A DNA stretch of 64,000 nucleotides from IMG/VR virus record IMGVR_UViG_3300025652_000002; one strand, given 5' to 3'. Of the stretch, positions 6,866 to 60,046 are shown piece after piece. This DNA comes from a virus. The notes under the pieces were generated by a model. It saw nothing but the letters and a program-made list of their open reading frames with translations, did no database searches and was not told the DNA's origin. A program made the translations under genes and the position numbers. Position 1 is the first letter of the stretch. Every line of letters starts with the position of its first letter.

Positions 6866-7163
6866 AGTAAACTTCCCTAACGGGACCTACATTATTGTTG
6901 ATCGCAGTATTGTAGGTAAGTTCTTCGAAAATGCAAACATTTCAACAGAGGACCTACCTGAAGACTTCGACCTTTCCGCGCCTGAAATCCGGCGTCATAA
7001 CAACGCCTTTAGCTCCTTGGTTGGGGCTATTGACGCAAAGTGGGGTTACTCTTACGAGCCTCTAAAAGCCAAACCTCAGCCTTACATGGCTGGGGACCTA
7101 CGACAGTACATGGATAACCTCATTGAACAGGAGTATGAGAATGACTATGACTACAATAACTGA
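6855..7163 (+). CDS. hypothetical protein (probable TTG start)
   Basis: No in-frame ATG near the 5' end. TTG at 6855 follows aaagga. Confidence 0.35.
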   Translation: MKVKVNFPNGTYIIVDRSIVGKFFENANISTEDLPEDFDLSAPEIRRHNNAFSSLVGAIDAKWGYSYEPLKAKPQPYMAGDLRQYMDNLIEQEYENDYDYNN

Positions 7164-7539
7164 GATCCTTGCCCGTTGCGTTGAACTTGAAGCGACTATG
7201 TCCGAAAAGGGTTTCACAGTTCCAGAGGTTGGGATTCACCTCCGAACTCACGGGCGCATTACAGTGGCCCTAGATTGTAGCTGCACAAGCCCTATTAAGT
7301 TTGATGGCGATCGTTCTTATGCGTTTGCTTATGGAGATACTATCGAAGAAGCTTTTGAAAAGGCCGAACTGTGTATCGAAGATATTGTAGATGTAGAAAC
7401 CCAAAACAAAAAGAGCTACACCAAGAAACTGGCAGACGCTATTGACTTTGGTATGGAAGTCGGAATTGAACGGGCCTTCATTGAACCAGTACGAGAAACA
7501 AAGAACTTGGTCCTTGAGACCCTTATCACAAAGCAGTAG
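7141..7539 (+). CDS. hypothetical protein
   Basis: The listed start at 7123 is TTG. ATG at 7141 sits 8 nt after aggag. Confidence 0.45.
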   Translation: MTMTTITEILARCVELEATMSEKGFTVPEVGIHLRTHGRITVALDCSCTSPIKFDGDRSYAFAYGDTIEEAFEKAELCIEDIVDVETQNKKSYTKKLADAIDFGMEVGIERAFIEPVRETKNLVLETLITKQ

Positions 7540-7547
7540 GAGAAACT

Positions 7548-8222
7548 ATGCTAGAAGTCAAACATGTAAACGAGGCTAAGACCCTTTTCGACCTCCAACC
7601 AGAAGTAGGCAGCTACGTCGATTGTTGGAACAACTCTCATAAAGGCACACTGTTCCTTATCCAAGATAACTGGAAGTCGTGGGGTGGTGTGGGCTGCCCT
7701 TGGTGGGTTCCTCATGGTACAGAGGTAACCCCTGTTAAAAAGCCTGTTCGGGAGGCAAAGTACAAGGACCCAGCAAAGACACGGTACATCCCAACAAACA
7801 AAGTTCTTCAAATGGAGCCTGTTCGGGAGGTGGAGCGTCACACTAAACGGCGAGGTTACACTCGTTTCTCAGAAAGCTTCCGCCGAAAGGTTTGTAAGAC
7901 AGCTATTATCCTTGGGGATATGAAAGAAGCCTCTGATCGTCATAAGGTTTGTCAAACTTCTGTCTGGAACTGGCTTAAAACCTACGGCTATGCTAATGAC
8001 TTTGTGCAGACTAAGTACAAGAAGCGCGGTCTAGAGGTAACAAGCACCCCTTATGATGTTCCAGCAAACAAAGGTTATCCTGATCAGATGCGTCTAGCAG
8101 CCGCCATGTATGCAGTTGATTACAGCCCTCAAGCAGCTGCTAATCGCTATGGTGTCTCTTTGAGTTCAGTGTACTACTGGATTCATAACTACAACTTGTC
8201 TCGTGCTTACGCGAACAAGTAA
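7548..8222 (+). CDS. putative DNA-binding protein with two transposase-like HTH motifs
   Basis: DRHKVCQTSVWNWLKTYG and NRYGVSLSSVYYWIHNY resemble IS630/Tc1-type HTH. Immediately upstream of the RNAP gene. Confidence 0.4.
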   Translation: MLEVKHVNEAKTLFDLQPEVGSYVDCWNNSHKGTLFLIQDNWKSWGGVGCPWWVPHGTEVTPVKKPVREAKYKDPAKTRYIPTNKVLQMEPVREVERHTKRRGYTRFSESFRRKVCKTAIILGDMKEASDRHKVCQTSVWNWLKTYGYANDFVQTKYKKRGLEVTSTPYDVPANKGYPDQMRLAAAMYAVDYSPQAAANRYGVSLSSVYYWIHNYNLSRAYANK

Positions 8223-8232
8223 ATAACCCTTG

Positions 8233-8280
8233 CCTCGCCCCTTCGGGGGCGGGGTTTCTCCTTAACCTTTTTTTTTTTTC
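8233..8280. terminator. rho-independent terminator
   Basis: cctcgcccc-ttcg-ggggcgggg hairpin followed by T12. Confidence 0.6.
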
Positions 8281-8296
8281 TTTTAGAAGGAGTAAG

Positions 8297-10489
8297 ATGA
8301 AAACAGCACTAGAACTGTTATGCGAAGACTTTGAATTTCGCCAACGATACCTGTTAGACAAAACGGGACAAAACGTGGACAAGCGCAAGAAATCTTGGAA
8401 GCTTTATGGTAAGGACGGTAAGGAAGCCATTGAGGCAACCTACGGACACATCCTTACCGCGTTAGAGAGTAACACCTCTCTGTCGGCCCTGACAGTAAAA
8501 ATGGGTGGAGTGATTAGTCGTCGTTTCAACTTGGACAGCGATGAGGTTGAGATGTCTCACCTCGGATGGTTCACCCTTGTCTCTTACTTTGAGATGGGCT
8601 ACCTTAAATACAAAGCAAAACACATAAAGAAGAGGAACGGAAAGAAGACAAAGTACCCAACCTACCACATCTATGTAACTAACACTGACGCAATTAACTC
8701 TCTCTTAGAGTCAGTAAATAGGGACAAAGTGGAACTATTTCCCTCGGCGGGACCTGTAGGTGATTGGGAAGAAGGGTTTCTTCACCCTATAACTAAGTAT
8801 CCTCTGATCAAGAACGCTTCAGAGGATACTATCCAAAAGGTAAAAAACCTTGAGTTGACCTACATTAAGGACACTCTCAACAAACTAAACAACACAGGCT
8901 GGCGTATTAACCAACCAGTATTCGAAGTGTTCAAGGCCAGTATGCACTGGGAAAAGACGCCTTTTAAGTTTTCAAGAGAGATCGATCCGGTAAAGAAAAC
9001 CTCTTTGCTAATTGAGATAAACGCTATCAAGGGGATAGCAGAAAGGCATAAAAATAACACATTCTACCACCTATACAACTTGGACTTTCGAGGAAGAATC
9101 TACCCTAACACAGCTTTCCTTCACGAGCAGTCCTCTGATAATGCCAAGGGCTTGCTTCTGCTTGAGGACTCCGTGCCGCTTGGAGAAGAAGGATACTACT
9201 GGCTCTGTGTCCACGCAGCCAACGTCTGGGGAAACGATAAAGTAGACCTAGATGATCGTGTAAAGTGGGTTCAGGACAACATAGACGATATACTACGCTG
9301 GGGTGCTCTTCCACAAGAGTTCCGTGGCTGGATGGAGGCTGATAAGCCTTTCTCTTTCCTTGCTGCCTGTGTTGAGATCAACATGTTGGATAGTTGGGTA
9401 CAGTCAGGTAACAACCCTCACGACTTCCCAAGCAACCTACCTGTTTACATTGACGGGTCAAACAATGGTGTTCAACACCTTGTTGCTATGTCTAAGGATG
9501 AGACTATTGCACCTTTGGTCAACCTAACTCCCTCAAAACTACCGGGAGATGTCTATCTTTACATTGCTGAAGCCGCCATGGCTAAAGTCAATGAAATGGT
9601 AAAAGCTTTAGACGAGGACGAGGTTGACAAGTTTGAGGGTCTTTTCTCTAAGTACGTTAGTCTTTTAAGGGTAATAGAAGCTGCCCCAGACAACTCTGAG
9701 AAGAAGGCTTTAGCTTGGAAGGCTATGCTTGAGTACAAGAACCACAACCACACCTTAAGGGAGAAGCTTTTTCCCGTCTACTGGTCCAAGATCAAAGACA
9801 AAAAGGTTTGGCGTAAAATGCTCAAGAGAAACGTCATGACCCTCGGTTACGGGGGTACACGTCAAGGTATGGGTGAACAAGTTGTAGAAGACACTCGTGG
9901 GATGAGTGACTACCTTAGAGACAAGGAACCCAAGTGGGGCTACATGCTTGGTAGTATGGTCTTTGACCTCTGCTATGAAAAGCTTGAGGGTCCCGCAAGG
10001 ATGCTCCAAATGTTTCAAGAGCTAGCTGTTAGGGAGAATGACCTTAATAGGCACCTGACTTACACCCTCCCTATAACTGGGTTCCCTTTCCAACACAACT
10101 ACAGGAAACCCAAAAGCAGAGATGTAAGCTTCTACTACGGGGAAGAGCGTATCCGTTTGACACTAAGTATCTGGCAGGAGGCCACCTTAGACAAACAGAA
10201 GCAGAAGACAGGTACAGCACCAAACATTGTACACAGCTTTGATGCTGTTCACCTAGCGAGTGTCGTCCATGATGCTCTCTACGTAATCACAGTTGTCCAT
10301 GATTCTTTTGGGTGCCATGCGGGTAACATGGGACAACTTTTCTACCACGTTAGAGAGAAGTTTATCGATCTTTACGAGTTGGAACCTTTAGAATATGTAA
10401 TGGCACAGTTAGATGCCTTAGACCTTATACCAGAGAAAGGGACATTGGATGTCACAAGAGTTCGATCTTCAGAGTTTTCATTCGCTTGA
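8297..10489 (+). CDS. T7-like single-subunit DNA-dependent RNA polymerase
   Basis: 730 aa. Motif C VVHDSFGC. Ends FSFA like T7 RNAP (FAFA). Overall T7 RNAP-like sequence. Confidence 0.9.
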   Translation: MKTALELLCEDFEFRQRYLLDKTGQNVDKRKKSWKLYGKDGKEAIEATYGHILTALESNTSLSALTVKMGGVISRRFNLDSDEVEMSHLGWFTLVSYFEMGYLKYKAKHIKKRNGKKTKYPTYHIYVTNTDAINSLLESVNRDKVELFPSAGPVGDWEEGFLHPITKYPLIKNASEDTIQKVKNLELTYIKDTLNKLNNTGWRINQPVFEVFKASMHWEKTPFKFSREIDPVKKTSLLIEINAIKGIAERHKNNTFYHLYNLDFRGRIYPNTAFLHEQSSDNAKGLLLLEDSVPLGEEGYYWLCVHAANVWGNDKVDLDDRVKWVQDNIDDILRWGALPQEFRGWMEADKPFSFLAACVEINMLDSWVQSGNNPHDFPSNLPVYIDGSNNGVQHLVAMSKDETIAPLVNLTPSKLPGDVYLYIAEAAMAKVNEMVKALDEDEVDKFEGLFSKYVSLLRVIEAAPDNSEKKALAWKAMLEYKNHNHTLREKLFPVYWSKIKDKKVWRKMLKRNVMTLGYGGTRQGMGEQVVEDTRGMSDYLRDKEPKWGYMLGSMVFDLCYEKLEGPARMLQMFQELAVRENDLNRHLTYTLPITGFPFQHNYRKPKSRDVSFYYGEERIRLTLSIWQEATLDKQKQKTGTAPNIVHSFDAVHLASVVHDALYVITVVHDSFGCHAGNMGQLFYHVREKFIDLYELEPLEYVMAQLDALDLIPEKGTLDVTRVRSSEFSFA

Positions 10490-27241: not shown

Positions 27242-27257
27242 AGTTTTGGAGAACACT

Positions 27258-27404
27258 ATGGAAGAAGAAAAGAAGGTTTTCTACTGCAAAGACTGTGATG
27301 AAGAAGTAGACGAAGATGGTGATACACTAACTGACTTTGGTTGCTCTTACTGCCCCGTCTACTGTGATACCTGCGGGGATCATGGCTGTGATCAGTCCTG
27401 TTAA
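27258..27404 (+). CDS. small Cys-rich protein (48 aa)
   Basis: Not in the ORF track. YCKDC...CSYCPVYCDTCGDHGCDQSC. Confidence 0.35.
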   Translation: MEEEKKVFYCKDCDEEVDEDGDTLTDFGCSYCPVYCDTCGDHGCDQSC

Positions 27405-27689: not shown

Positions 27690-27914
27690 ATGACCGATCG
27701 ACCCAACTGCCACAAATGCAAGTGGTCCAAACAGAGTGTCCTTAACTCCGGCACTCACCACCGAAGCTGTCATTTGAAGATCAAAGACACAGAGTTCTTG
27801 CCTGAAATTAACCTAAGTGAACACGGAATTATGAAGGGGTGGTGTAGTTGGCCTTATGACTTTGATCCAGTTTGGGTCGATCGTTGTACCGCCTTTGAGG
27901 AGAAACTAGGATGA
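27690..27914 (+). CDS. Cys/His-rich hypothetical protein
   Basis: CHKCKW...HHRSCH. Possible Zn binding. Confidence 0.4.
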   Translation: MTDRPNCHKCKWSKQSVLNSGTHHRSCHLKIKDTEFLPEINLSEHGIMKGWCSWPYDFDPVWVDRCTAFEEKLG

Positions 27915-28081
27915 AATACGCAGCAAAGGTATATAGCCCTAATGGTTCTGAATGGATCTTTTGTGTATCCCACTCAAAAAAGGCTTGCAAGAAGCAGTTC
28001 TGTGAATGGTATGCTAACGTTAGTTACGAGGATATCTGCGTTAAGTATATTGAGGTAGAAGTGACGGAGAAACTAAGATGA
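27911..28081 (+). CDS. small hypothetical protein (56 aa)
   Basis: Not in the ORF track. ATGA overlaps both sides. Confidence 0.3.
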   Translation: MKYAAKVYSPNGSEWIFCVSHSKKACKKQFCEWYANVSYEDICVKYIEVEVTEKLR

Positions 28082-28302
28082 ACTACGAAGAATACAAAGA
28101 GGCAGGTAGCCACTACACCTTTATAGACGACAAGTCAGGCTACGAATGTTACCCTCGCTGGCTTGTCCTCCTAGACGTAATGGTCCATCAACCTTCCCAA
28201 ATTACTGAGCCTCTCATGGGTATTGGTAAAGAGGGTCGCCCTGATGAAACGGACGTCCTTGTTTGTTTTGAGCAGCTTAAGAAGAAAGTGAACACACTAT
28301 GA
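28078..28302 (+). CDS. hypothetical protein
   Basis: ATG start. Confidence 0.45.
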   Translation: MNYEEYKEAGSHYTFIDDKSGYECYPRWLVLLDVMVHQPSQITEPLMGIGKEGRPDETDVLVCFEQLKKKVNTL

Positions 28303-28715
28303 CCGTTGAAGGTAAGCCTAACCTCTTCATTGTGAGGGGAGTTCCCGGATCAGGGAAAACCACTTTTGTAAAAAAGTCGAATGTCCAGTGCTTGCATCTT
28401 GAGGCTGACATGTTGTGTTACGTTCAGGGTGCCTACAACTGGCGTCCAGATCAAGTACGTCTTAACCATGAAGCTTGTTGGCAAATCGCTAAGATCACGA
28501 TGGACCGTGGCGCTGACATTGTGATCTCAAACACCTTCACACGTCGTTGGGAGTTTTGTAAATACGTTGACTATGCGGAGTCCCTTGGTTATAATGTTGA
28601 GGTGTACCGCATGATGGGTGACTTTGAAAACACCCACGATGTACCACCAGAAATAGTACAGTCAATGCGAGATCGCTTTGAGGACTTTGAAGGAGAAATT
28701 CGTGTCCAGCTTTAG
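28299..28715 (+). CDS. P-loop polynucleotide 5'-kinase-like protein
   Basis: VRGVPGSGKTTF plus DIVISNTFTRRWEFCKYVDYAESLGYNVEV parallels the T4 Pnk kinase domain (GCPGSGKST ... VIISDTNLNPERRLAW...GWKVE). Confidence 0.6.
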   Translation: MTVEGKPNLFIVRGVPGSGKTTFVKKSNVQCLHLEADMLCYVQGAYNWRPDQVRLNHEACWQIAKITMDRGADIVISNTFTRRWEFCKYVDYAESLGYNVEVYRMMGDFENTHDVPPEIVQSMRDRFEDFEGEIRVQL

Positions 28716-29244
28716 AAACGATATCTGGTTCATTTCAGATACTCACTTTCAACACACTAACATCCTGAAGTACTCTAAGTCTCGTGCTGCGTTGTTCAAC
28801 AATACAAAGCAGATGGATGAGGTGATGATTGATAACTGGAACAAGACTATCAAGCCAGAGGATAAAGTGTATCACCTCGGTGATGTTACTTTTGGGAGTA
28901 AGGAGTACTATGCAGACAACATCCACCCACGGTTGAACGGTAAGAAGCGTTTGATTGTAGGGAACCACGATAACATCAAGTTCTTTGCTGAACGTAACCT
29001 GTTCCAGAAGATCATGTTGTGGCGTGTTTTTAGTGACCCTGAGTACCCGTTCCTGTTTTCTCACGTCCCTGTCTTCCAGAGGGAGATAGATGACCGAGTA
29101 AAACAACCTAACGCCAAGAACATTCATGGCCACTTCCATGATGACCTACCTCCAACAAAGAACCATTTCTGTGTCTGTGTTGAGCAGATTAACTTTAAAC
29201 CTATCCATATTGAGGAAATTAAACATGAAGTGTCCAAACTGTAA
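28702..29244 (+). CDS. calcineurin-like metallophosphoesterase
   Basis: ISDTHFQH, YHLGDVTFG and IVGNHDN motifs. The listed start at 28678 is TTG. GTG at 28702 sits 8 nt after aaggag. Confidence 0.55.
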   Translation: MSSFRNDIWFISDTHFQHTNILKYSKSRAALFNNTKQMDEVMIDNWNKTIKPEDKVYHLGDVTFGSKEYYADNIHPRLNGKKRLIVGNHDNIKFFAERNLFQKIMLWRVFSDPEYPFLFSHVPVFQREIDDRVKQPNAKNIHGHFHDDLPPTKNHFCVCVEQINFKPIHIEEIKHEVSKL

Positions 29245-29515
29245 AGTAGAATTAACCGGAATTATCGACCAAGACGTAGAGGGTAAGATAGATATTAAAC
29301 TGAAAGTTAAACCCAAACTGTCTCAGGTTAAGGTAAAGTCGCAGCCGCTTGGCTTTTACATCTACAAGGGAGAGGGCTTAAATACACGGTATCTTGGCAC
29401 AGACTTAAATTTCCACAAGACCATGATGACAGACTTTACCCCTTATCTATCAAAACCTTACGCTGATAGGTTGGTTGATAATCTGCACAAAAAGGAAAAG
29501 AAGGTTCAACAGTAA
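29225..29515 (+). CDS. Zn-ribbon protein
   Basis: MKCPNCKVEL. ATG 29225 after gagga. Confidence 0.4.
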   Translation: MKCPNCKVELTGIIDQDVEGKIDIKLKVKPKLSQVKVKSQPLGFYIYKGEGLNTRYLGTDLNFHKTMMTDFTPYLSKPYADRLVDNLHKKEKKVQQ

Positions 29516-29805
29516 TGAAAGTCAAAGAGCTAATCAACATCTTAAAGACCCTACCACAGGAGGTAGAGGTGGTTATGCAGTTAGGCCAAGAAGGTAACTA
29601 CTATGAAGCCCTTTGGAGTGAACCCGCTCTCAAAACAGCTGATGGTTACCAAGAAGACGGTTATGGCTATAGTGATTGTATCTTCCGAGACCCTGAACTT
29701 ACTCTCGAAGAATACAACGAAGAAACAGAAATCTTCGATGACCCTTACGAAGTCATGGAAGAGTGGCTTGAGTATGTTGCATCACCAAAAGTGGTTGTGC
29801 TATGA
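29515..29805 (+). CDS. hypothetical protein
   Basis: ATGA overlap. Confidence 0.45.
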   Translation: MKVKELINILKTLPQEVEVVMQLGQEGNYYEALWSEPALKTADGYQEDGYGYSDCIFRDPELTLEEYNEETEIFDDPYEVMEEWLEYVASPKVVVL

Positions 29806-29984
29806 ACGGCCAAGGACAACCACTACCTTTAGTGTCTATCCATCAACAATCAGATGGGTGGCGTATCGAAGTTAACAACCGGAGCTACAGCTGGAATCAC
29901 AACGAACCAGACTTGGGTGTTTTCGCACTACAGGTCTTTCTTTCTGACTTGGGCTTCAACACAGAACTAGTAGAGGAATACTAA
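29802..29984 (+). CDS. hypothetical protein
   Basis: ATGA overlap. Confidence 0.4.
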   Translation: MNGQGQPLPLVSIHQQSDGWRIEVNNRSYSWNHNEPDLGVFALQVFLSDLGFNTELVEEY

Positions 29985-30904
29985 TGGACTATGTAAGATT
30001 TCTTTCACTATCCCGTATGGGAAAGGCTGAGGTTGAGGGGATTGAGGCAGGAACCTGCCACGTTTTCCCTAAGCTAGATGGTACCAATGCCTCCCTATTT
30101 TGGGATGATGCAAACTACGGGTTAGGTGCAGGGTCTCGTAACCGAAAACTCTCTGTTGACGCTGACAATGCTGGTTTCCTGAACCACATGAAGGACCACC
30201 CGACTGCTAACGAGTTGGTAAAGTCTTTCTCCGAGTGGAACATTTTTGGTGAGTGGCTTGTACCCCACAGCCTAAAGAGTTACCGTGAAGAAGCTTGGCG
30301 TCAGTTCTACATCTTCGACGTCTGGGATCAAAACAAAGAGTGCTACCTTCACTACGATGAGTACAACGCTGCTCTTTCCCCTATTCTCCAGTCAGTTCCT
30401 TGCAACGACATTAAGATCATTCCGCCTATGGCGATTGTGACTAATGGTGATGCAATCAAGTTCCAGCATCTTGCTGAACAGAACACCTACATGATTGAAG
30501 ACGGTAAGGGTTGTGGTGAAGGGGTTGTTATCAAGAACTACAGCTATGTCTCTAAGTTCGGTAACTATCAGGCTGCAAAGCTTGTAACAAACCTATTCAA
30601 AGAAGTCAATGCCGAAGCCTTCGGACCTCGTGAGATCAACCAAGAAGTCGTTGAACAACTGATTGCCGAAGCCTACGTAACAAAGGGCCGAGTCGAAAAG
30701 ATTGTTCACAAGATCGAAGATGAAATGGGTCAGAAGTTCGACTCAAAGTCTATTCCACGGCTACTCAACTCTGTCTACCATGACATTATTGTTGAAGAGT
30801 CTTGGGAGTTCATTAAGAAGTTCAAGCAACCAACAGTAAACTATAAACTTCTGCAGCGGTATGTTATCATGCAGATCAAGACAGTATCACAGGAGTTATT
30901 TTAA
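29984..30904 (+). CDS. ATP-dependent RNA ligase, Rnl2-like (possibly a polynucleotide ligase)
   Basis: Motif I FPKLDGTNASL (K-x-D-G-T-N as in Rnl2). Motif IV EGVVIKN. Motif V AAKLV. Confidence 0.55.
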   Translation: MDYVRFLSLSRMGKAEVEGIEAGTCHVFPKLDGTNASLFWDDANYGLGAGSRNRKLSVDADNAGFLNHMKDHPTANELVKSFSEWNIFGEWLVPHSLKSYREEAWRQFYIFDVWDQNKECYLHYDEYNAALSPILQSVPCNDIKIIPPMAIVTNGDAIKFQHLAEQNTYMIEDGKGCGEGVVIKNYSYVSKFGNYQAAKLVTNLFKEVNAEAFGPREINQEVVEQLIAEAYVTKGRVEKIVHKIEDEMGQKFDSKSIPRLLNSVYHDIIVEESWEFIKKFKQPTVNYKLLQRYVIMQIKTVSQELF

Positions 30905-31230
30905 TGGATAAAGCAAAATTCGATGCGGGGCGAATCATCCTAGATGTCCCGATGCAAGAAAACGATGCAGGGGCAGACACGATCGGAGACTATTTAATCC
31001 TACTCGCTGAAGGTGTTTGGATGGGGGGAGAGAGCTTCTCAGGTAAACGTCCCTTCGGTAACTCTGGCTGGCAGGGAGAGGTGTTCTACGCACTCGTTGC
31101 AGAGGGCCAAATTGAAGGAGAGATTGACCCAGAGTATGGTGATATTTTAGACTACGACAAAGATCATGGGAGAAAGCTAATCCTTATGGCCTTCCACGCA
31201 CTATACCACCTAAACAAGGAACTACTATGA
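30904..31230 (+). CDS. hypothetical protein
   Basis: ATGA overlap. Confidence 0.45.
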   Translation: MDKAKFDAGRIILDVPMQENDAGADTIGDYLILLAEGVWMGGESFSGKRPFGNSGWQGEVFYALVAEGQIEGEIDPEYGDILDYDKDHGRKLILMAFHALYHLNKELL

Positions 31231-46317: not shown

Positions 46318-47517
46318 ATGAGCACCTACGGCCTAACAGTTGAAAACAAAACCTATAACCTAACACTTTCTCCAACTGAGTTGACCGTAACCCTAGTCCC
46401 ACCGAGTGACTACGTTGTAAACATAGACAACCCAAACCTAGTAACCAGCATCGAGACCCAAGACTATAATGTTTCTCTTTCAAGGGTGGGTGCTCAAGGG
46501 GCTGATGCTGACCTTACAAACATAGACTATTTGGGTTTTGATCTAGCCTCCACCCACGAAGTTTTGGAAGGGGAACTAGCTTGGAACGTAGATGACGGAA
46601 CCCTAGACCTCGGTTTGGGTTTTGGGGTTGTGAACCAACTCGGTCAAGAGACCCATATCTATGTTAAGGCAAAAGAAGCTATCTCAAATGGAGAAGTGGT
46701 TTACGTTAGTGGCAGTCCCGGAAATAGTGGTAAGCTTGAAGTTTTAAAGTACATTGCCAATGCTACAATCGATGAACTCTATGTTTCAGGGGTTGCTACC
46801 CACGATATTGCCGTAGGTGACTTTGGCTACATCACTGTCTTTGGTGCTGTTAGAGGTCTACCTACAGATGGCGCACTACAAGGTGAAACTTGGGTTGCTG
46901 GTACTATCTTGTATGCTTCCCCTATTGTTGCGGGAGGTATGACAAACATTTTACCCGTTGCTCCAAACCAGAAAATCCCTGTAGCTATTGTTCTAAACCC
47001 TAGCCCAAATAACGGGGCTATCTTTGCAAGAGCACACGAACTCGGCTATCACTTAGGTGAACTGCATGACGTCAATATCTCGGATATCACAGATGGTGAA
47101 CTTATCCGCTGGGATGGTACAAGGTTTGTAAACAACACTCTTACTGAAGCAGGTATCCAACCCGCTGGTTCTTACTCTGTCGTAGGTCACACCCATCCCT
47201 TTTCTGATATAACAGACACCCCAACAACCCTAGCAGGGTATGGTATTACAGATGGTGGTAGCGGGTCTGGCGCAACAGAATTAAACGGGCTTAGTGACGT
47301 CACTGTGGCTGTTCTACAAGAAGGTGATGCCTTACTCTTTGATAGCGCTTCTGGTGACTTTCAAAACTATCAACTCACAACTACTCGCTTGGGAGATATA
47401 GACAACACTAACAGAGCCGATGGTTCTGTCCTTGTTTATAACGGTACAACCACTAAATACGTTGCAACCAACTCCCTAGAAAACCCAAACTTAACAGTAA
47501 TCGGAGGTAGCTTTTAA
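46318..47517 (+). CDS. tail fibre protein
   Basis: Fibre-like composition. ATGA junctions with its neighbours. Confidence 0.5.
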   Translation: MSTYGLTVENKTYNLTLSPTELTVTLVPPSDYVVNIDNPNLVTSIETQDYNVSLSRVGAQGADADLTNIDYLGFDLASTHEVLEGELAWNVDDGTLDLGLGFGVVNQLGQETHIYVKAKEAISNGEVVYVSGSPGNSGKLEVLKYIANATIDELYVSGVATHDIAVGDFGYITVFGAVRGLPTDGALQGETWVAGTILYASPIVAGGMTNILPVAPNQKIPVAIVLNPSPNNGAIFARAHELGYHLGELHDVNISDITDGELIRWDGTRFVNNTLTEAGIQPAGSYSVVGHTHPFSDITDTPTTLAGYGITDGGSGSGATELNGLSDVTVAVLQEGDALLFDSASGDFQNYQLTTTRLGDIDNTNRADGSVLVYNGTTTKYVATNSLENPNLTVIGGSF

Positions 47518-48641
47518 TGGCAACCAAAATTATTATCAAAAAGAGCAGCACTGCTGGTGCCGTTCCCCTCTCCGGTAATCTGGATCAGGGTGAAGTCGCG
47601 GTCAACCTAGCTGATCGTAAAATTTACACAAAGGATAACTCCAACGCTATCGTCTCCCTTGGTGGCGCTTACGTTGACTCTGTGGCCCCATCCACTCCCG
47701 CCGAAGGTGACATTTGGTATGACACTGTTGCTAACGCACTAAAAGCTTATAACGGTTCTGCTTGGATCGCTGCAGGGGTAAGCTCCCTCGCCGCTCTTTC
47801 TGATGTAACTATCACCACAGTTGCTTCTGGGGAAGTGCTTAAGTATGACGGTGCAGGTTGGATTAACAACACCCTAGCAGAGGCAGGTATTGCAGCAACA
47901 GGGGATATCCCAACAAACAACAACCAGCTTACTAACGGTGCTGGCTATATCACAGGGATTACTGGGGAAAACCTCCAAAGCCTGAATGATGTAAACATCA
48001 CCTCTATTGCTTCTGGTGAACTCCTGAAGTGGACAGGTACCGAGTGGGTCAATAACACCTTAGTTGAAGCTGGAGTTGCTTCCGTTGCTTCTGTCCCAAC
48101 AAACAACAACCAACTTACTAACGGTGCAGGGTATATCACTACCTATACAGTCACCCAAGGAGACGTTACAGCACATCAAGCTGCACTCTCTATCACAGAG
48201 TCTCAAATCAGTGACCTTCAGGCTTACCTGACTGCTGAAGCGGATACTCTTGCTACGGTTATGTCTCGTGGTGCTACTACTGCAACCGCTATGACTATCA
48301 CAAACGCCACGGCCTCCACTACTACAGGTACAGGCGCTCTTAAGGTAACAGGCGGCGCTGGTATCGGTGGAAACGTAAACGTTGGTGGTAATGTCGTCGT
48401 TGCAGGTGACTTGACAGTAAACGGTACAACCACTTCTGTTAACTCCAACACAGTAAACATCGGTGACTCTATTATCACCCTTAACTCTGATGAGGTAGGT
48501 GTTCCTTCGCAGAACGCTGGCTTTGAGGTTGAGCGTGGTACGTCAGCTAATGTTTCCTTCTTCTGGAATGAAGCTAACGATGCTTGGGATATGGGAGACT
48601 ATAACCTTCAAAACGTCGTTATCGACGGTGGTACTTACTAA
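47517..48641 (+). CDS. tail fibre protein (shares N-terminal domain with 48680)
   Basis: MATKIIIKKSSTAGAVPLSGNLDQGEVAVNLADRKIYTK vs MATKIIPKKSTVAAKVPLVGDLDQGELAINLTDKKIYSK. Confidence 0.55.
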   Translation: MATKIIIKKSSTAGAVPLSGNLDQGEVAVNLADRKIYTKDNSNAIVSLGGAYVDSVAPSTPAEGDIWYDTVANALKAYNGSAWIAAGVSSLAALSDVTITTVASGEVLKYDGAGWINNTLAEAGIAATGDIPTNNNQLTNGAGYITGITGENLQSLNDVNITSIASGELLKWTGTEWVNNTLVEAGVASVASVPTNNNQLTNGAGYITTYTVTQGDVTAHQAALSITESQISDLQAYLTAEADTLATVMSRGATTATAMTITNATASTTTGTGALKVTGGAGIGGNVNVGGNVVVAGDLTVNGTTTSVNSNTVNIGDSIITLNSDEVGVPSQNAGFEVERGTSANVSFFWNEANDAWDMGDYNLQNVVIDGGTY

Positions 48642-48679
48642 CACACTAACCCTTACTCTATAGTAAAAGGATAAGCCTT

Positions 48680-49957
48680 ATGGCAACTAAGATTATTCCA
48701 AAGAAAAGTACGGTAGCAGCAAAGGTTCCCTTGGTCGGCGATCTCGATCAAGGTGAGCTTGCTATCAACCTTACAGATAAAAAGATTTACTCTAAAAACG
48801 GCTCAAATGCTATTGTTGAAATGGGGTTTGATGGTGCCTACGGCTCTCTCTCCGGTGTACCCGGAACCTTTCCGCCAACAATCACTGGTACTAGCTTCAG
48901 CGGGACCTACCCTGTTCTTTTTAACGTTACAGGGGACTTACTATACAGTGACACCGACATAACCTTCACAGGTACTACTGGTGTACTTTCTGTTCCCGCT
49001 GTAGATGCTGGTACTGGTTATGGTACTGGCTTTACCTTAGAAGGTAACACGCACCAGATTAACTCAAATGATGGTGGGGGAAACTTCAACATCCGTGTTG
49101 CTAACGACTTTATTACAGGCTGTACAGAGGCAGGGTATGCTTCCCACTGGGTATATTCACAGTCCACAGGTGTTTGGTCGTTCAATGGCAGCACAGCAAC
49201 CTTGGCTGTAGGTAACGCACCAACTTGGCAGACTAACATGTCCCTTGACGCCAATGGAAATTTGGGTATACTTGGAACAGTGGACGGACGAAACGTCGCT
49301 GTGGATGGGTCCAAGCTTGATGGTATTGAAGCTGGCGCTACAGCAGGTCTACCCTCAACAGGTACAATGACAAGCCTAACCATCGGTGCAGGTGTAACTC
49401 TAAAAGAGTCCACTGACCGACCAGATCTCCTACAGATTGAGTCGCTTACAGGAACTTGGTCTGGTATGCAGATTTATAATAGCGTAGACAACCTCCGTTG
49501 TAGCTTCTTTTGTGATGGTACAACAGCAGGCTTTTATGATGATGTTGTGAACCAGTGGATGTGTAAGTTTGAGGCAGCGGGTCAGGTAGAACTCTTCCAC
49601 GCTAACTTAATTAAGTTTGCAACAACCTCCACAGGCATCACCGTAACAGGTGACGTCAACTCAACCTCTGACCGTGCTCTCAAAGAGAACATTGTAAAGC
49701 TGGAAGACCCGATTGTCAAGCTAAGGGCTATCAATGGCTACACCTATAACTTCATCGAAAACGGTGAGCGTTCTGTTGGTGTTATTGCTCAAGAAGTCGA
49801 AGCTATTCTCCCTGACGCTGTAAGAGGTGAAGAGGGTGAAAAGACAGTAAACTATAACGCTCTGATTGGTCTTCTTGTGGAAGTCAACAAAGAGCAACAA
49901 AGTAAAATAGAAAGTCTAGAGGCTCGTTTAGAAGCCCTAGAAGAACGCCTAGTTTAA
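48680..49957 (+). CDS. tail fibre protein with C-terminal intramolecular chaperone (peptidase S74-like) domain
   Basis: C-terminus DRALKENIVKLEDPIVKLRAINGYTYNF...VGVIAQEVEAILPDAV...NYNALIGLLVEVNKEQQ is typical of the autoproteolytic chaperone. Confidence 0.6.
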   Translation: MATKIIPKKSTVAAKVPLVGDLDQGELAINLTDKKIYSKNGSNAIVEMGFDGAYGSLSGVPGTFPPTITGTSFSGTYPVLFNVTGDLLYSDTDITFTGTTGVLSVPAVDAGTGYGTGFTLEGNTHQINSNDGGGNFNIRVANDFITGCTEAGYASHWVYSQSTGVWSFNGSTATLAVGNAPTWQTNMSLDANGNLGILGTVDGRNVAVDGSKLDGIEAGATAGLPSTGTMTSLTIGAGVTLKESTDRPDLLQIESLTGTWSGMQIYNSVDNLRCSFFCDGTTAGFYDDVVNQWMCKFEAAGQVELFHANLIKFATTSTGITVTGDVNSTSDRALKENIVKLEDPIVKLRAINGYTYNFIENGERSVGVIAQEVEAILPDAVRGEEGEKTVNYNALIGLLVEVNKEQQSKIESLEARLEALEERLV

Positions 49958-52276: not shown

Positions 52277-52839
52277 TGAGAACTTACTCTGCCGCAACCC
52301 TAGCCGCCTTAGCCGACGCAACTGTTTCTTTCTTTTATTTAATAGAACTTGAGTTGAACAACGCTACTTACTACTTTACTACCTACCCTCGCGACCTTGT
52401 GGTTGGGGGCCAAACGTATCTAGGTAATGGCCTAGTACTAGACACCTCCACACCAACCCAGAATACTGTTGTGAACCGTGCTGCCTACACCCTAACCCTC
52501 GCTGATCCTAACGATGAGTTGAGAACAGAAATAAAACAAGGTATTGTTGGTAAGAATCTCAGAATTCGGGCTGGGTTTGCAACTGAAGCAGCAGGTCCGT
52601 TACTTGATGAGGCTGATCTGATCTTTGCTTACAGGGGTTACATTGACTCTCCAAAGACTACCAACGATTTTTACTCAAAGGTAGTAGTTTTAGAAGGTTC
52701 TTCTCCTATGTCTGATCTCGATCTAGTAAAACCGTACTTTACAAGTAAGTATGGTGTAAGTCAATTTGACCCAACTGACACCTGTTTTGACAGGATTTCA
52801 GAGGGTTACGCAATTCAAGTAAGGTGGGGTAAAATCTAA
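52276..52839 (+). CDS. tail-associated hypothetical protein
   Basis: ATGA overlap. Confidence 0.45.
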   Translation: MRTYSAATLAALADATVSFFYLIELELNNATYYFTTYPRDLVVGGQTYLGNGLVLDTSTPTQNTVVNRAAYTLTLADPNDELRTEIKQGIVGKNLRIRAGFATEAAGPLLDEADLIFAYRGYIDSPKTTNDFYSKVVVLEGSSPMSDLDLVKPYFTSKYGVSQFDPTDTCFDRISEGYAIQVRWGKI

Positions 52840-55800
52840 TGCCATTTTTTCAATTTGTCTTCGCTGTTGCTGTAGGACTTTATACTTCTTCTAAGCAAAA
52901 AGCCGCATTAAAGAAGGCCCAGCGGGAACAAGAAGCCGCCGCTGATAAACGACGCGGTAGTGAGTTTGAGGTAAAGAATGATGTTATCTCTTTACCTATC
53001 GCTTACGGTCGAACAATTATTGCAGGGGTCCAGTATGACCACCGCGTGAGCAAAGACTATAACTATGTGGTTCCTGAAAACGGCACCTATATCTTTGACT
53101 CTCAAGACCTCATCCCATCGGTTGTTGATGAAAGACTAGACTCAGGGTTTTCTCTAGCAACCTTCTTTGACCGCTTTGCACTTCTTGGTTCCATCTACTC
53201 TCTCCTTGAAAATTTGACTGAGGAGGAGAATAAGACAGACAAGGGTGGATTAGCTGCCACAGTTACCGGGACAAAAGATGAGTTTCTGTTCTGTAAGCGA
53301 GCAATTTGTCATGCAGGTATCAGTGAAGTGATTCATGCTGTTGTTGATAACAAGGCTTACAGCCATAAAGACTATAAGTTTGGTCAACGATTTGTTGTTT
53401 ACCCTAACGGAGGTCCTAGTGCCCTTCTTCAGGATAACGGCTACCCTGATTCCGAGTCGTTTACTAACGTTTGCCATGCCGCAGAGGTCTTTCGCCTAGA
53501 CCGTGAAGAGGCTAACTACAGTTCAGCCCCTCAAGTCCAGTACCTTGTCAAGGGTCAGGCGGTCTACTCTATCGAGGAGAACGTTGGGGTCTACACCCTT
53601 AGTGCTTCTAAGGCTTACAGCAATAACCCTGCCTACGTCTTGCTTGACTACCTAACCAACACCGTTTACGGTCGTGGTATGCCCTTGTCAGAGATCAACC
53701 TTGAAAGCTTTTACAACGCTGCTCTGGTTTGTGACACAGTTGTTCTAACTGCAGCACAGGTTGCAGGTAATATTTGGGGTTCACGCCCTCTTTCTCGCTA
53801 CCCAACTTTTGCAGACTTTCCTAATCCAAATGCTTTCGGCTTCGAAGATATCTTGCTGATGGATGACCAACTGAATGTGCCTTACTACTGGAACAAGGTT
53901 AGTGAAGATGAGGATAAAGGAACTGTAGTTGGTGAGTTTGTGGCTACAACACTTCCTACTGCCGACATCAAGCTTTTCGAGTGTAACCTCACTCTTGAGA
54001 CACAAACTTCAATTCGTGATAACATTGAGGAAATCCTCTCAACAATGGGGGAAGCAGAACTTACTTGGGACGCTAGTGGGTCTTACAAACTCCTTTTGGA
54101 CTACCCAACAACCCAAGGAGAGTCCGACGCCCTCGTTACCCAAACCTTCACTGAAGATGACTTGCTAAGAACTAACGTTGAAACCACGTTCCCAAACGCA
54201 GTTGAACGCTACAACTTTGTAACGGTTAGCTTTAAAAATGAGAACAAGAACTTCAAGTCAGATACTGTTTCTTGGCCACAAAAGGGTGATTCGGTTTACG
54301 CAACCTACCTCGCCGAGGATAACGGTCAACCTTTCGAAACCTCTGTGTCTCCAAAAGGTATCACAGATGCTTACCACGCCTTAGCCTACGCTGAACAGTT
54401 GGTTCGTGCTAGCCGCTCTCTGTATACAATTTCTGTAGACACCAATCGAAAAGGTGTCTTAACAGAACCGGGCGACTTTATCAGAATTGATACCCCTACA
54501 GCGGATATAGCCTCTACTGACATCTTTCTGGTGAAGGAAGTGCAAATTGGTAAAGACTTTAATACGAGGCTTATAGCTAACAAGTTTGACTTCACAACCT
54601 TAGCTTGGAACATCGCAGATGGTACAGCCTACCCTGAAACAGATAACTATGATTTCAGAGTGCCGCCTGTAACCAACCTTCAGATTGGTGTTGTACCTGT
54701 CGTTACTAGCGCAGGGGTCACAAACCTCTCTTGGGATTTTGCTGAAGGTTCTTCTTATAACTTTGAAGTAAGCTATCGTGCGACAGGGGGTACAGATTTT
54801 CTTGCCTATGGCACAACCCGAAACAACTACTTTGAAGTTGGGGCACTAGAAGGGTTTGAAACAACTACCCAGTACGACTTCAGGGTAGTAGTAATTTCTG
54901 CTTTAGGAACTCGTTCCCTAGCCTCCTTCTTAGAAAACGTGGAAGTCCTCTCTAAGCCGGGTTCTGCCCAGAACCTCGCTGTCGCTGATGAAATCTACAA
55001 TACCAACACTGCAGCGGGTATCAAGTCACGAGCAATACTTAGCTGGTCCACAGGTTCCTCAGGGACAGCTGCCGACTACTACACTATTGAGTACAAGCTC
55101 GCTACAGACGTCGCCTACACTAACGTAGGGGTGACAAATAATCTGAGCTTCACTTTCTTTGATTTGAAGCCTGACATCTACAACTTTAAGGTAACACCTA
55201 CTTCTTACCTCGGTTTGAACGGGACTTCTGCTATAGTTGCAAAGCTTGTACAAGGTCTTCTAGCTGACCCTCAAGACCCAACAGGCTTTTCTGCAAACGT
55301 CAACGAGGGACAGATTCAACTTAGTTGGGATGTTCCAACAGACCTAGATGTTTTGACAGGTGGACGTACTGAGATTAGGACTCACCCTGATATCACTGCT
55401 TCTGCTACTTGGGAAACCGCTACTACCCTAGTGGAGTCTGTCGCTGGTAACAACAACAACAAAACTATCCCGGCAATCAGAGGCACTTACTTCATTAAGC
55501 ACATCGACTCCTCTAATAGACTTTCGGTGAATGCTGCTTCGGCTGTTAACTTGTTTGTTGATAACACCTTTAGAACTGTTACGTTTATAAACGAAGATGC
55601 CAGTAACTTTGCTGGGGTAAAGACTAACTGTAACTATAACTCCCTCACAGGTAACCTAGAGATCGATGCGGGTCAAACTTCTATGACCTATGATTTCGAA
55701 AACGTTCTAGACTTCGGTGAAATTGAGCAGTTCAGGGTCACTCCTAGCATTACCGCAACTGTCAGTGAGGCGGGTGTAAACGTTGCAGACTATGTCAGTA

Positions 55801-56273
55801 TTGCGGACTTGGTTCGGTTTGTCGGTGACTTCACTGACGCGGCGCTTCGTTTTGAGATTTCTCAAACTCAAGATGATCCTACAGGTTCACCTGTCTGGAC
55901 CCCTTACGAGACCTTCCACATTGGTAGCTATACCGCTCGTGCTCTTAGGTTCCGTTTCGTTGGAACAGCCCTCAACAATAGTACCCTGATCGCTGTACAA
56001 AACCTAGACTTGTTAGTTGAACGTGCTGCTCTCTTTAAAACAGGGCAGACGACAAGTAGCTCGTCCGGGGATGTCACAGTGACTTATACAGACCCTTTCT
56101 ATGGGGGACTAGACGGTCTCTTTACACCTAGTATCGCTCTACAAATCATCGGTGGAAGCCAAGGTGACGAAATCATCATAACCAGCAAAGACAAGGATGG
56201 CTTTACTTACTCTGTTTATAACAGTGCTAGCCGAGTTGTAAGAACCCTAGACTGGCAAGCACTAGGACAATAA
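52839..56273 (+). CDS. lambda gpJ-like host-specificity / tail tip protein with fibronectin type III-like domains
   Basis: YVLLDYLTNTVYGRGMPLSEINLESFYNAALVCD parallels lambda J NMAWCLWDMLTHPRYGMGKRLGAADVDKWALYVIGQYCD. PGDFIRIDTP vs PGDVIEICDD. FN3-like SW...Y...V..R repeats. Confidence 0.5.
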   Translation: MPFFQFVFAVAVGLYTSSKQKAALKKAQREQEAAADKRRGSEFEVKNDVISLPIAYGRTIIAGVQYDHRVSKDYNYVVPENGTYIFDSQDLIPSVVDERLDSGFSLATFFDRFALLGSIYSLLENLTEEENKTDKGGLAATVTGTKDEFLFCKRAICHAGISEVIHAVVDNKAYSHKDYKFGQRFVVYPNGGPSALLQDNGYPDSESFTNVCHAAEVFRLDREEANYSSAPQVQYLVKGQAVYSIEENVGVYTLSASKAYSNNPAYVLLDYLTNTVYGRGMPLSEINLESFYNAALVCDTVVLTAAQVAGNIWGSRPLSRYPTFADFPNPNAFGFEDILLMDDQLNVPYYWNKVSEDEDKGTVVGEFVATTLPTADIKLFECNLTLETQTSIRDNIEEILSTMGEAELTWDASGSYKLLLDYPTTQGESDALVTQTFTEDDLLRTNVETTFPNAVERYNFVTVSFKNENKNFKSDTVSWPQKGDSVYATYLAEDNGQPFETSVSPKGITDAYHALAYAEQLVRASRSLYTISVDTNRKGVLTEPGDFIRIDTPTADIASTDIFLVKEVQIGKDFNTRLIANKFDFTTLAWNIADGTAYPETDNYDFRVPPVTNLQIGVVPVVTSAGVTNLSWDFAEGSSYNFEVSYRATGGTDFLAYGTTRNNYFEVGALEGFETTTQYDFRVVVISALGTRSLASFLENVEVLSKPGSAQNLAVADEIYNTNTAAGIKSRAILSWSTGSSGTAADYYTIEYKLATDVAYTNVGVTNNLSFTFFDLKPDIYNFKVTPTSYLGLNGTSAIVAKLVQGLLADPQDPTGFSANVNEGQIQLSWDVPTDLDVLTGGRTEIRTHPDITASATWETATTLVESVAGNNNNKTIPAIRGTYFIKHIDSSNRLSVNAASAVNLFVDNTFRTVTFINEDASNFAGVKTNCNYNSLTGNLEIDAGQTSMTYDFENVLDFGEIEQFRVTPSITATVSEAGVNVADYVSIADLVRFVGDFTDAALRFEISQTQDDPTGSPVWTPYETFHIGSYTARALRFRFVGTALNNSTLIAVQNLDLLVERAALFKTGQTTSSSSGDVTVTYTDPFYGGLDGLFTPSIALQIIGGSQGDEIIITSKDKDGFTYSVYNSASRVVRTLDWQALGQ

Positions 56274-58179: not shown

Positions 58180-59751
58180 ATGGCTAAACTAACGAAGTCA
58201 CCAAAGGCCCTAAAAAGGTCCGTGGCAGACCCAACAGATAGTTATATCGCTATCAAGCCTCTTTGGAAACGAGCACGAGCAGTCCTTCAAGGTCAGGCTA
58301 TGGCTAAAGCCCACGATGTTTATGTTTCCGATTTTGAAACAAACCTACTGATTCCCTTCTCTAACAACATGAGCGATGCACAGTATTCCTTTTATAAGGC
58401 TGAGGCAGAACTTCCGGGGCTTACAGCACAATATTCTAAGGTTCTTATCAACGCGCTTCTACGAAAACGCTCTGTCCTAGAACTACCTGAGTCTATCCCA
58501 GCTGATGCTAAGGAGTGGATTGAGAGCGACTTCACCATTGAAGGTCAGTCACTTTTCAACTTCCTAGACAACGCTTTGTGGGAAGAACTACAAACCTCCC
58601 GCGCTTGGGTCTACGTGGACTATCCCTCTATTACAGAGGAAGACTGGACCGCTATGGATGCCGATCAACGGAAAGCCGTTGCCCCTTACCCCATCTTGGT
58701 TAAGGCTGAAAGCATTATTAACGTTCAAACAAACCTCCACCCTATTACCCGAACTAAAACTGTTACACGGTTCATTACACGGTATCTGACGGAGAAGTTT
58801 ACTGAAGCAAACCCTTGGCACGCAGAACACGTTGACACTGTGGTTGACCACTACCTTGACGAGTCCGGTTACCTAGTAATCAACTACTATGAAAGCCCAG
58901 ACTCAGCTAACACCATCACTATCACAAACGGGGAAGTTGCCCAAGAGTATAATGATACTGCCCAAGATTCAAACTTTGTTCTTGTAAATACGATTCGTCC
59001 AACAATGGCTGGGGAACCTATTAAACGTATTCCTGCTTGGCCCTTGAATGGTCAAATTGAACCAATGGAGCCTATTCTTATGCCCTTGGTTGATCGTGAG
59101 ATTGCTCTGTATAACAAGATTTCTCGTCGTAACCACCTGCTATACGGTGCCGCAACCTACACACCTATTGTCAAGTCTGACATGGGAGACGATGAGTTCC
59201 AAGAACTTGTTAACTCCGGTCTAGGTTCTTGGCTTCGTGTTCGTGTGGGCGAAGACATTACTGTTCTTGAAACTCCCACCGCAGCCCTCGCTGACATGGA
59301 TCGTGCTATCGAAGCCACCATTGAAGAAATGGCTAAAATGGGTATTCGTATGCTCACACCGGAGCCAGCTGCTTCAGGTGTCGCCCTAGAGATTCGAAAC
59401 GCTTCTCAGACAGCTCAGCTAGGAGCCTTGAATACTAAGGTGTCTAGTACCATGCAAGAGGTTATCGCCTTCATGGTTGACTGGCGTTATGGTATTGAGA
59501 TTGACAGCAGCGAGATTAGCTTCGAAATGTCTTCTGACTTCTCACCTATGGTTGGTGGAGAGGGGGCTATGCGCCTTGTTGGAGAATGGTACCAAACTGG
59601 TCTTATTCCACGGTCTGTTTTTGTCAACATCGCTAAGTACAACGACTTCTTACCCTCAGACTATGATGATGATAATGCAATTCAAGAAATCCAGACTGAT
59701 CCTTTAGCAGCGCAGGTTGCAGGGAACCAAGAGGTAGACCTCGAAGAGTAA
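58180..59751 (+). CDS. portal (head-to-tail connector) protein
   Basis: 523 aa. Size and loose similarity to T7 gp8. Followed by a MuF-domain gene, the canonical portal-MuF order. Confidence 0.5.
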   Translation: MAKLTKSPKALKRSVADPTDSYIAIKPLWKRARAVLQGQAMAKAHDVYVSDFETNLLIPFSNNMSDAQYSFYKAEAELPGLTAQYSKVLINALLRKRSVLELPESIPADAKEWIESDFTIEGQSLFNFLDNALWEELQTSRAWVYVDYPSITEEDWTAMDADQRKAVAPYPILVKAESIINVQTNLHPITRTKTVTRFITRYLTEKFTEANPWHAEHVDTVVDHYLDESGYLVINYYESPDSANTITITNGEVAQEYNDTAQDSNFVLVNTIRPTMAGEPIKRIPAWPLNGQIEPMEPILMPLVDREIALYNKISRRNHLLYGAATYTPIVKSDMGDDEFQELVNSGLGSWLRVRVGEDITVLETPTAALADMDRAIEATIEEMAKMGIRMLTPEPAASGVALEIRNASQTAQLGALNTKVSSTMQEVIAFMVDWRYGIEIDSSEISFEMSSDFSPMVGGEGAMRLVGEWYQTGLIPRSVFVNIAKYNDFLPSDYDDDNAIQEIQTDPLAAQVAGNQEVDLEE

Positions 59752-59896: not shown

Positions 59897-59968
59897 TCCT
59901 CCCTAGCTTAGCGGTAAAGCACCCGACTGTTAATCGGACGAGGCTTGGTTCGAGTCCAAGGGGAGGAG
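59897..59968 (+). tRNA. tRNA-Asn (GTT), CCA encoded
   Basis: Manual cloverleaf. Acceptor tcctccc/gggagga. Anticodon loop ctGTTaa. T-loop ttcgagt. Confidence 0.65.
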
Positions 59969-59973
59969 CCAAT

Positions 59974-60046
59974 CTTGGTGTAGCTCAGAGGGTAGAGTGG
60001 CTGCTTTGGAAGCAGAGAGTCGGAGGTTCGAGTCCTCCTACCGAGA
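59974..60046 (+). tRNA. tRNA-Pro (TGG), CCA encoded
   Basis: Manual cloverleaf. Anticodon loop ttTGGaa. T arm ggagg-ttcgagt-cctcc. Acceptor stem has two G-U pairs. Confidence 0.55.

Follow-up and report, generated by a model that had tools for sequence, protein, structure and literature searches.

A window of 64,000 nucleotides from the IMG/VR virus record IMGVR_UViG_3300025652_000002 (the window here meaning this whole stretch of analyzed DNA) encodes, on the + strand and within 2.6 kb, a cassette of three enzymes that we read, with a modest lean, as a pathway that heals and seals the ends of broken RNA, split over three proteins. The genes are those of a P-loop kinase (28299-28715), a binuclear metallophosphoesterase (MPE; 28702-29244) and an ATP-dependent polynucleotide ligase resembling RNA ligase 2 (Rnl2) of phage T4 (29984-30904). 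Their open reading frames (ORFs) lie at the coordinates given in an earlier, model-made annotation of this DNA, hereafter the original prediction. The three proteins can be assigned to families and folds, their catalytic motifs are intact, and their genes are evolutionarily coupled.

Gene neighborhoods lend good support to the prediction that the three genes work together; they were counted in 80 IMG/VR loci of the kinase and in those of the 80 closest IMG/VR relatives of the MPE and of the ligase. The commonest genes on the same strand within 3 kb of the kinase were the MPE (27 of 80 loci), an Rnl1-like ligase (17) and a ligase combining an OB domain with PF09414 (9), and an Rnl2-like ligase was near in 4 loci and a DNA ligase in only 5. 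Of the 30 loci that also had the MPE, 26 had a ligase less than 6 kb from the kinase, compared with 5 of the 50 that did not (Fisher p = 4e-12, without correction for relatedness). The trio is retained in relatives whose ligases are 92% and approximately 68-73% identical to that of the cassette, with the small ORFs between the genes swapped for others, and it recurs in a different gene order in two loci, L031 and L099. In L031 (4299-8351), an IMG/VR phage contig, the order is Rnl2-like ligase, MPE and kinase, and a canonical DNA ligase comes next (7005-8351), so that here the healing enzymes naturally have ligases of both types beside them. Moreover, Rnl1-type ligases (PF09511) are flanked by the same kinase and MPE families in Escherichia phage rV5 and in Pakpunavirus, Vibrio and Acinetobacter phages, the ligase partner being exchanged for an unrelated RNA ligase. 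Roseobacter phage DSS3_VP1, which carries an MPE and an 'RNA ligase 2', was considered as a three-gene equivalent and rejected, as the upstream ORF of 130 aa is not a kinase.

Gene fusions point in the same direction. The MPE and the kinase are joined in one polypeptide in P0278, where the MPE part is 28% identical to the MPE of the window (1e-19), and in L062 (5350-6435). Other fusions within the kinase family combine the kinase with an OB domain and an RNA ligase (P0255), or with a T4-type HAD_PNKP phosphatase (P0227), and genes for cREC and for T4-type HAD_PNKP adjoin the kinase in further loci. Since HAD_PNKP is fused to the kinase or placed beside it elsewhere, the MPE occupies the slot of a known 3'-phosphatase. 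Together, fusions and neighborhoods constitute strong, if inferential, evidence that the kinase heals polynucleotide ends and that the MPE has taken the place of the 3'-phosphatase.

The kinase (138 aa) displays the motifs GVPGSGKTT and DIVISNTFTRRW. As a single sequence it matched Pfam AAA_33 (5e-11) and Zeta_toxin (4e-7), PHROG 2071 'ATPase' (2e-30) and PHROG 505 'polynucleotide kinase' (3e-7), and a single-sequence search of the PDB returned nothing useful. We then used a family profile of 25 homologues, in all of which R13, the Walker A motif GxxGSGK (G14-VPGSGK-T21), E35, D37 and SNTF are kept without change. The significant PDB matches of this profile were nucleic-acid end kinases only: PSTK (3e-6), T4 Pnk (4e-6, over the whole kinase domain including the P-loop and D35), the Pnkp of Clostridium thermocellum (CthPnkp, 3e-5), mammalian PNKP (9e-5), Trl1-type kinases (3e-4) and Pnkp1 (9e-4). 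Zeta toxin (0.03-0.45), nicotinamide riboside kinase (NRK, 0.14) and glucokinase (0.14) were not significant. In the profile alignment D37 pairs with the catalytic D35 of T4 Pnk, and is the putative catalytic residue. An AF2 model of the kinase (pLDDT 90) gave concordant results in Foldseek, where PNKP, PSTK and CthPnkp were the best matches, with mammalian PNKP at the top and gluconate and APS kinases close behind. The placement of the protein in the polynucleotide/tRNA-kinase clade is thus supported, and we predict that it is a stand-alone polynucleotide 5'-kinase, a member of a family with 1087 cluster representatives at E<=1e-30. The original prediction had recognized a P-loop kinase resembling the kinase domain of T4 Pnk, and the profile and fold searches bear this out; the nucleoside kinases and zeta toxins that it named as the competing families are the ones that fell short of significance against the PDB.

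The ligase (306 aa) contains the motifs KLDGTN and EGVVIK and matched Pfam RNA_ligase (PF09414, 2e-17) and PHROG 548 (1e-44); a single-sequence search of the PDB found no match. The AF2 model (pLDDT 88.5) displays a nucleotidyltransferase domain (residues ~1-205) followed by an alpha-helical C-terminal domain of four helices (~220-306). In Foldseek, full-length T4 Rnl2 ranked first (1e-13, 339 columns), followed by Rnl5, Rnl3, Rnl1 and REL1. Only RNA ligases ranked above 3qwu, a chain whose deposition names it a putative DNA ligase (7e-7), and unmistakable DNA ligases appeared from 2e-6. The original prediction had held out a DNA ligase similar to T7 gp1.3 as the competing identity, and the likeness to T4 Rnl2 over its full length, with RNA ligases ahead of DNA ligases, speaks for an RNA ligase fold instead. 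Alignment of the ligase family with T4 Rnl2 by hhalign covered residues 3-287 against 1-322 (E 4e-5), so that the cassette ligase aligns end to end, and paired K30 with K35 (motif I), E90 with E99 (motif III), F111-D112 with F119-D120 (motif IIIa) and E179 and K184 with E204 and K209 (motif IV); R52 is present as well. K30-x-D-G-x-N, E90, F111-D112 and E179-G-x-x-x-K184 are invariant across 42 sequences of the ligase family, and K30 is the predicted adenylylation lysine. The alignment continues into the C-terminal domain, where both have a YVT..RV..KI stretch, and that domain is weak when aligned alone (E 0.008). The ligase is, as judged from alignments and the model, Rnl2-like in fold and layout and belongs to a separate clade, with 3117 homologues at E<=1e-5.

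The MPE (180 aa) displays the motifs DTHFQH, GDVTFG and GNHDN and belongs to PHROG 547 (4e-47). Its metal-ligand motifs, D13-x-H15, G60-D61, G87-N88-H89, H121 and G143-H144-x-H146, are unchanged in six phage homologues. The closest relative of solved structure is Aquifex aeolicus aq_1665 (PDB 1xm7; 1e-11 with the single sequence and 5e-22 with the family profile, over residues 3-146), which has the same metal-ligand motifs; aq_1665 is a structural-genomics protein, so that the likeness says nothing on substrate, and the literature on aq_1665 and COG4186 gives no function. Distant PDB relatives of the profile were the glycerophosphodiesterase GpdQ, the cyclic-nucleotide phosphodiesterase Rv0805 and YfcE, and no Pnkp phosphatase chain was matched at E<=1. 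The description of the phosphatase in the original prediction, 'as in bacterial Pnkp', accordingly holds at the level of the superfamily and not of the family, which is aq_1665-like. The GTG start at 28702, on the other hand, was correctly anticipated: a Shine-Dalgarno sequence, AAGGAG (28690-28695, + strand), can be read where the kinase gene nears its 3' end, 6 nt before the GTG, and gene callers use the same start on related contigs. The MPE gene thereby overlaps the kinase gene by 14 nt. We predict that the MPE is an end-healing enzyme acting on 2',3'-cyclic-phosphate and 3'-phosphate ends, and both the completeness of its metal ligands and its translational coupling to the kinase, by this overlap and a strong ribosome-binding site, lend support to the RNA repair pathway.

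According to this hypothesis a metal-independent ribonuclease, of the host or of a competitor, would cut tRNA or another structured RNA. The MPE would open and remove the cyclic or 3' phosphate to give a 3'-OH, and the kinase, with D37 as general base, would move the gamma-phosphate of an NTP onto the 5'-OH. The ligase, adenylylated on K30, would then seal the 3'-OH/5'-PO4 nick, which would most probably lie in a duplex or stem because the architecture of the ligase is Rnl2-type. What we infer here is the substrate (RNA, and the particular RNA), how the MPE would act chemically on nucleic-acid ends, and a role in counter-defense.

Several observations weigh against RNA as the substrate, or against a joint pathway altogether. 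Our search of the literature and the PDB returned no biochemical data on the kinase family, the MPE family or the ligase clade. Two arginines of T4 Pnk that contact substrate and phosphate, R38 and R126, have no clear counterparts in the kinase: R38 falls in an insert, and R126 pairs with E128, with R124 and R126 of the kinase close by. The invariant R13 might compensate. In motif V of the ligase, K199 pairs with K225 of T4 Rnl2 and V201 with K227, and the family consensus is W-A-K-I-V, so that one lysine stands where T4 Rnl2 has K-x-K. The original prediction listed KLDGTN, EGVVIK and K-x-K as Rnl2-like motifs; the first two are as described, whereas the sole K-x-K of the protein (KFK) is located in the C-terminal domain and not at motif V. 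Pfam T4_Rnl2_C was not detected in the ligase, and the NCBIfam Rnl2 equivalog TIGR02307 scored 19.4 bits against a cutoff of 197. Neighborhoods also provide counter-evidence. Neither MPE nor ligase was present within 6 kb in 45 of the 80 kinase loci. Among the best 80 relatives of the MPE, a kinase or RNA ligase was nearby in 12 and neither in 68, by the models used, and a canonical ATP-dependent DNA ligase (PF01068 + OB), the commonest neighbor in this set, occurred within 6 kb in 28, typically ~0.8 kb downstream. Of the best 80 ligase relatives, 71 had no kinase or MPE within 6 kb and were found among genes of replication and nucleotide metabolism (ribonucleotide reductase, 5'-3' exonuclease, MazG), the partners being confined to the clade nearest to the cassette ligase. 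Finally, the 64-kb window contains no second ligase, as we found no other KxDG ligase and no match to a DNA-ligase HMM.

Because the MPE is found beside DNA ligases, the ligase mostly alone, and no other ligase in the window, a DNA or hybrid substrate is possible. In this alternative, the main rival and one that we consider unlikely, the cassette would remove 3'-phosphates, phosphorylate 5'-OH ends and seal, by a ligase of the Rnl2 fold, nicks in DNA or RNA:DNA hybrids that arise from T7-like replication, recombination or nuclease attack, comparable to PNKP together with a DNA ligase. The location of the cassette within a block of replication and nucleotide-metabolism genes fits such a role, as does the annotation of some ligase homologues in Cellulophaga and Staphylococcus phages as 'DNA ligase' or 'lig'. 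Mammalian PNKP, the top fold match of the kinase, is a DNA kinase. Rnl2 and Rnl5 can use DNA as the 5'-PO4 strand, and the sealing of RNA-patched DNA has been proposed as a task for them, and yet the same characterized enzymes need an RNA 3'-OH strand (PMC4408790). The ligase of the cassette is moreover nearer to RNA ligases than to DNA ligases by both sequence and structure, and the kinase family keeps company mainly with RNA ligases, as the counts given above indicate. Since L031 encodes, besides the trio, a canonical DNA ligase as a gene apart, and rV5 has a DNA ligase of its own, a ligase of the cassette type is not simply the replicative ligase.

The loci that pair an MPE with a DNA ligase share no synteny with the window except for the MPE itself, which also argues against action on DNA. 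For the same reason an in-situ swap of a DNA ligase for the Rnl2-like ligase was considered and ruled out. One of these loci (set L188-L259) also has a gene for a T7-type endonuclease I. The position of the MPE upstream of DNA ligases suggests a general 'ligase-associated' role, of which we met no description in the literature. Carried further, the MPE could be a general end-cleaning enzyme that works with DNA ligases in some phages and with Pnk and RNA ligases in others; in the cassette, with the kinase and a single-lysine ligase of the Rnl2 fold, it would then perform PNKP-like repair of 3'-phosphate/5'-OH nicks in DNA or RNA:DNA hybrids, and not (or not only) in tRNA. We think this improbable. 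If true, the MPE would represent a third class of 3'-end-healing enzyme, and an Rnl2-fold ligase would have been recruited to DNA maintenance.

We give still less credence to the view that the three genes are neighbors with separate functions, in which the MPE would serve counter-signaling or nucleotide scavenging as a phosphodiesterase of nucleotides or cyclic (oligo)nucleotides, the kinase would be a small-molecule or nucleotide kinase (e.g. in NAD or nucleotide salvage), and the ligase would act alone. With 1539 records in phages, the MPE family is much commoner there than the kinase (603) or the ligase clade (333); most of its close relatives (68 of 80) have no partner nearby, and GpdQ and Rv0805 are among its distant structural relatives. 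In some phages, and in the relative whose ligase is 68% identical, the kinase has NAD-salvage genes (NAMPT, PRPP synthetase, NMNAT-Nudix) in its vicinity, and the gluconate and APS kinases among the fold matches could likewise be cited in favor of a small-molecule substrate. Separate functions are, however, difficult to reconcile with the fusions of MPE to kinase and of kinase to RNA ligase inside these families, with the translational coupling of kinase and MPE in the window, and with the dependence of a nearby ligase on the presence of the MPE. The kinase profile, furthermore, groups with polynucleotide kinases and leaves NRK and gluconokinase (0.14 each) without significance.

Returning to RNA repair as the favored interpretation, the cassette resembles T4 Pnkp (PseT) with Rnl1 and Rnl2 in that 5'-kinase, 3'-phosphatase and ATP-dependent sealing activities are all predicted for it. 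It differs in that the kinase lacks the HAD phosphatase domain of T4 Pnkp, the phosphatase being a metallophosphoesterase instead. In T4 itself, rnlB adjoins two head genes, 24 and hoc, the 10 kb inspected contained no gene for a kinase or phosphatase, and pseT is not known to be linked to rnlB. In T4, tRNA repair relies on Rnl1 and not Rnl2. The mending of tRNA loops is a task of Rnl1 and Rnl4; enzymes of the Rnl2 type act on nicks in RNA duplexes or RNA:DNA hybrids, and no physiological role in T4 has been proven for them (PMC4408790). An anticodon-loop target for the cassette is consequently an extrapolation. The original prediction of tRNA repair of the T4 Pnk/Rnl type is thus partly supported, for the enzymes and their linkage and not for the anticodon loop.

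The order kinase, metallophosphoesterase, ligase is also the domain order of bacterial Pnkp, known from the Pnkp-Hen1 system and represented by CthPnkp (PMC3675462). Like the predicted enzyme of the cassette, the 2',3'-phosphatase of CthPnkp is a binuclear MPE of the Mn type, and the profile match of the kinase extends to the kinase domain of CthPnkp. Unlike CthPnkp, which is one polypeptide, the cassette consists of three separate ORFs, with three unrelated ORFs inserted between MPE and ligase, and the MPE module of CthPnkp is lambda-phosphatase-like whereas that of the cassette is aq_1665-like. No Hen1-like methyltransferase was matched among the ORFs at 28078-31230, the rest of the window not being scanned exhaustively.

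A closer parallel is found in rV5. The kinase is ~38% identical to gp077 of this phage ('polynucleotide kinase' in BASEL phage records), the MPE belongs to the same family as gp076, and an RNA ligase is adjacent. The rV5 ligase is Rnl1-like (PF09511) whereas that of the cassette is Rnl2-like (PF09414), and the rV5 set has cREC, sirtuin and MazG next door, which the cassette lacks; a phmmer comparison of the rV5 cREC, Sir2 and MazG proteins and a cREC representative with the window gave no match. The rV5 neighborhood, comprising a T4-like tRNA ligase, cREC, a nucleotide kinase, MazG, a sirtuin and, in some cases, a phosphoesterase of the calcineurin-like type, was predicted to be an RNA-repair system by Iyer, Burroughs, Aravind and co-workers (PMC9503650). 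Calcineurin-like phosphatases are occasional stand-ins for HAD phosphatases in the RNA repair of jumbo phages (PMC7824862), and the Pakpunavirus homologue has been annotated as a 5'-kinase that acts with RNA ligases and has no phosphatase domain (PMC12846349). The cassette is a minimal version of a kind of RNA-repair system that had already been predicted, with an Rnl2-like in place of an Rnl1-like ligase and without cREC or sirtuin. In the relative whose ligase is 68% identical (L009, 8317-9639) and in Pakpunavirus (L016, 3412-6247), NAD-salvage genes (NAPRTase/NAMPT, PRPP synthetase) are located a few kb from the cassette, which echoes the published tie of phage RNA repair to NAD metabolism.

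Gp003 of Cellulophaga phage phi19:3 (PHROG 548) is 44% identical to the cassette ligase, and genes of Staphylococcus, Listeria and Bacillus phages (Herelleviridae) are 26-31% identical; the annotations of these PHROG 548 ligases are mixed, as either DNA or RNA ligase. The PHROG 548 ligase of Listeria P100 is near an MPE, RtcB and an HD hydrolase. The stretches inspected have no annotated kinase gene, and those of phi19:3 and phiSA012 have no annotated MPE either.

Every + strand gene between 28078 and 31394 overlaps its neighbor by 1-20 nt, so that the cassette is part of one tightly packed, translationally coupled gene string. A scan of the region for promoters and terminators gave counts that were not above those in shuffled controls. 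This applies also to sites such as the near-consensus sigma-70-like sequence at 28567-28595 (TTGACT, 17 nt, TATAAT; 11/12 matches), within the kinase gene and upstream of the MPE start. PADLOC gave a trivial P-loop match and nothing else, and none of the three proteins exceeded any NCBIfam family cutoff. Since the sequenced-phage collection contained no DNA nearly identical to the window, metagenomic contigs of ~72.3 kb are the sole source for this phage. The genome was described as T7-like in the original prediction, and the window indeed encodes a single-subunit RNA polymerase, a family-A DNA polymerase, a primase-helicase and an exonuclease. A ribonucleotide reductase is encoded as well, and the cassette follows the primase-helicase and this reductase. 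The T7-like single-subunit RNA polymerase and replication module co-occur with structural genes matching long tail-fiber proteins and a J-like central tail fiber, an unusual combination for a phage labeled 'T7-supergroup'; the regions concerned are 8297-10489, 47517-49957 and 52839-56273. An ORF that begins near 60237 runs past the end of the window (64000) and is at least 1255 aa long, and the ORF at its beginning (16-1428) has transglycosylase and tape-measure-like matches; if the genome is 72.3 kb long, these two ORFs may encode one virion protein of more than 4000 aa.

Three small + strand ORFs (29225-29515, 29515-29805 and 29802-29984) separate the MPE from the ligase and stand outside the conserved module. 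They had no significant family match, one of them hitting a PHROG of unknown function at 3e-4. Their homologues are confined to contigs from this phage or one very close to it, and other ORFs take their place in the relative with 68% ligase identity. As far as such distributions indicate, the three ORFs are lineage-specific filler. The first of them had been described as a Zn ribbon, which we could not confirm, as it contains a single CxxC and its Pfam match reached only 0.099. Small Cys-rich ORFs are present upstream of the cassette, at 27246-27404 and 27690-27914 (e.g. CKDC...CSYCPVYCDTCGDHGC), and it is plausible that these, rather than the ORF at 29225-29515, encode metal-binding mini-proteins. 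The 108-aa ORF that follows the ligase (30904-31230) was considered as a conserved partner and discarded: it has no likeness to the post-ligase ORF of the clade with 47% identity, and its homologues occur in the same phage only. A tight cluster of four tRNA genes (Asn-GTT, Pro-TGG, Thr-TGT and Trp-CCA; 59897-60204) is located directly after a portal-like gene (58180-59751) and immediately before the long ORF at 60237. The proposal that the cassette may be tied to this tRNA set is not supported: the cluster is 29 kb away, compared with 3 kb for the module and tRNA cluster of rV5, and no link was seen.

To our knowledge, RNA repair by a phage has been proven only in T4, where Pnkp and Rnl1 act against the anticodon nuclease PrrC, and tRNA-cleaving defenses are now recognized as common. 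Similar kits have already been predicted by comparative genomics in other phages; the cassette is a further example, and the gain is incremental. The kinase family is nevertheless large, the MPE is a recurrent partner in many phage groups, and the compact set of three genes is convenient for biochemistry. As the MPE is also found beside DNA ligases, its substrate range is a testable question. If the aq_1665-like MPE is a true end-healing enzyme for 2',3'-phosphates, it would be one more solution to the task, next to those of the HAD, lambda-phosphatase-like and 2H types.

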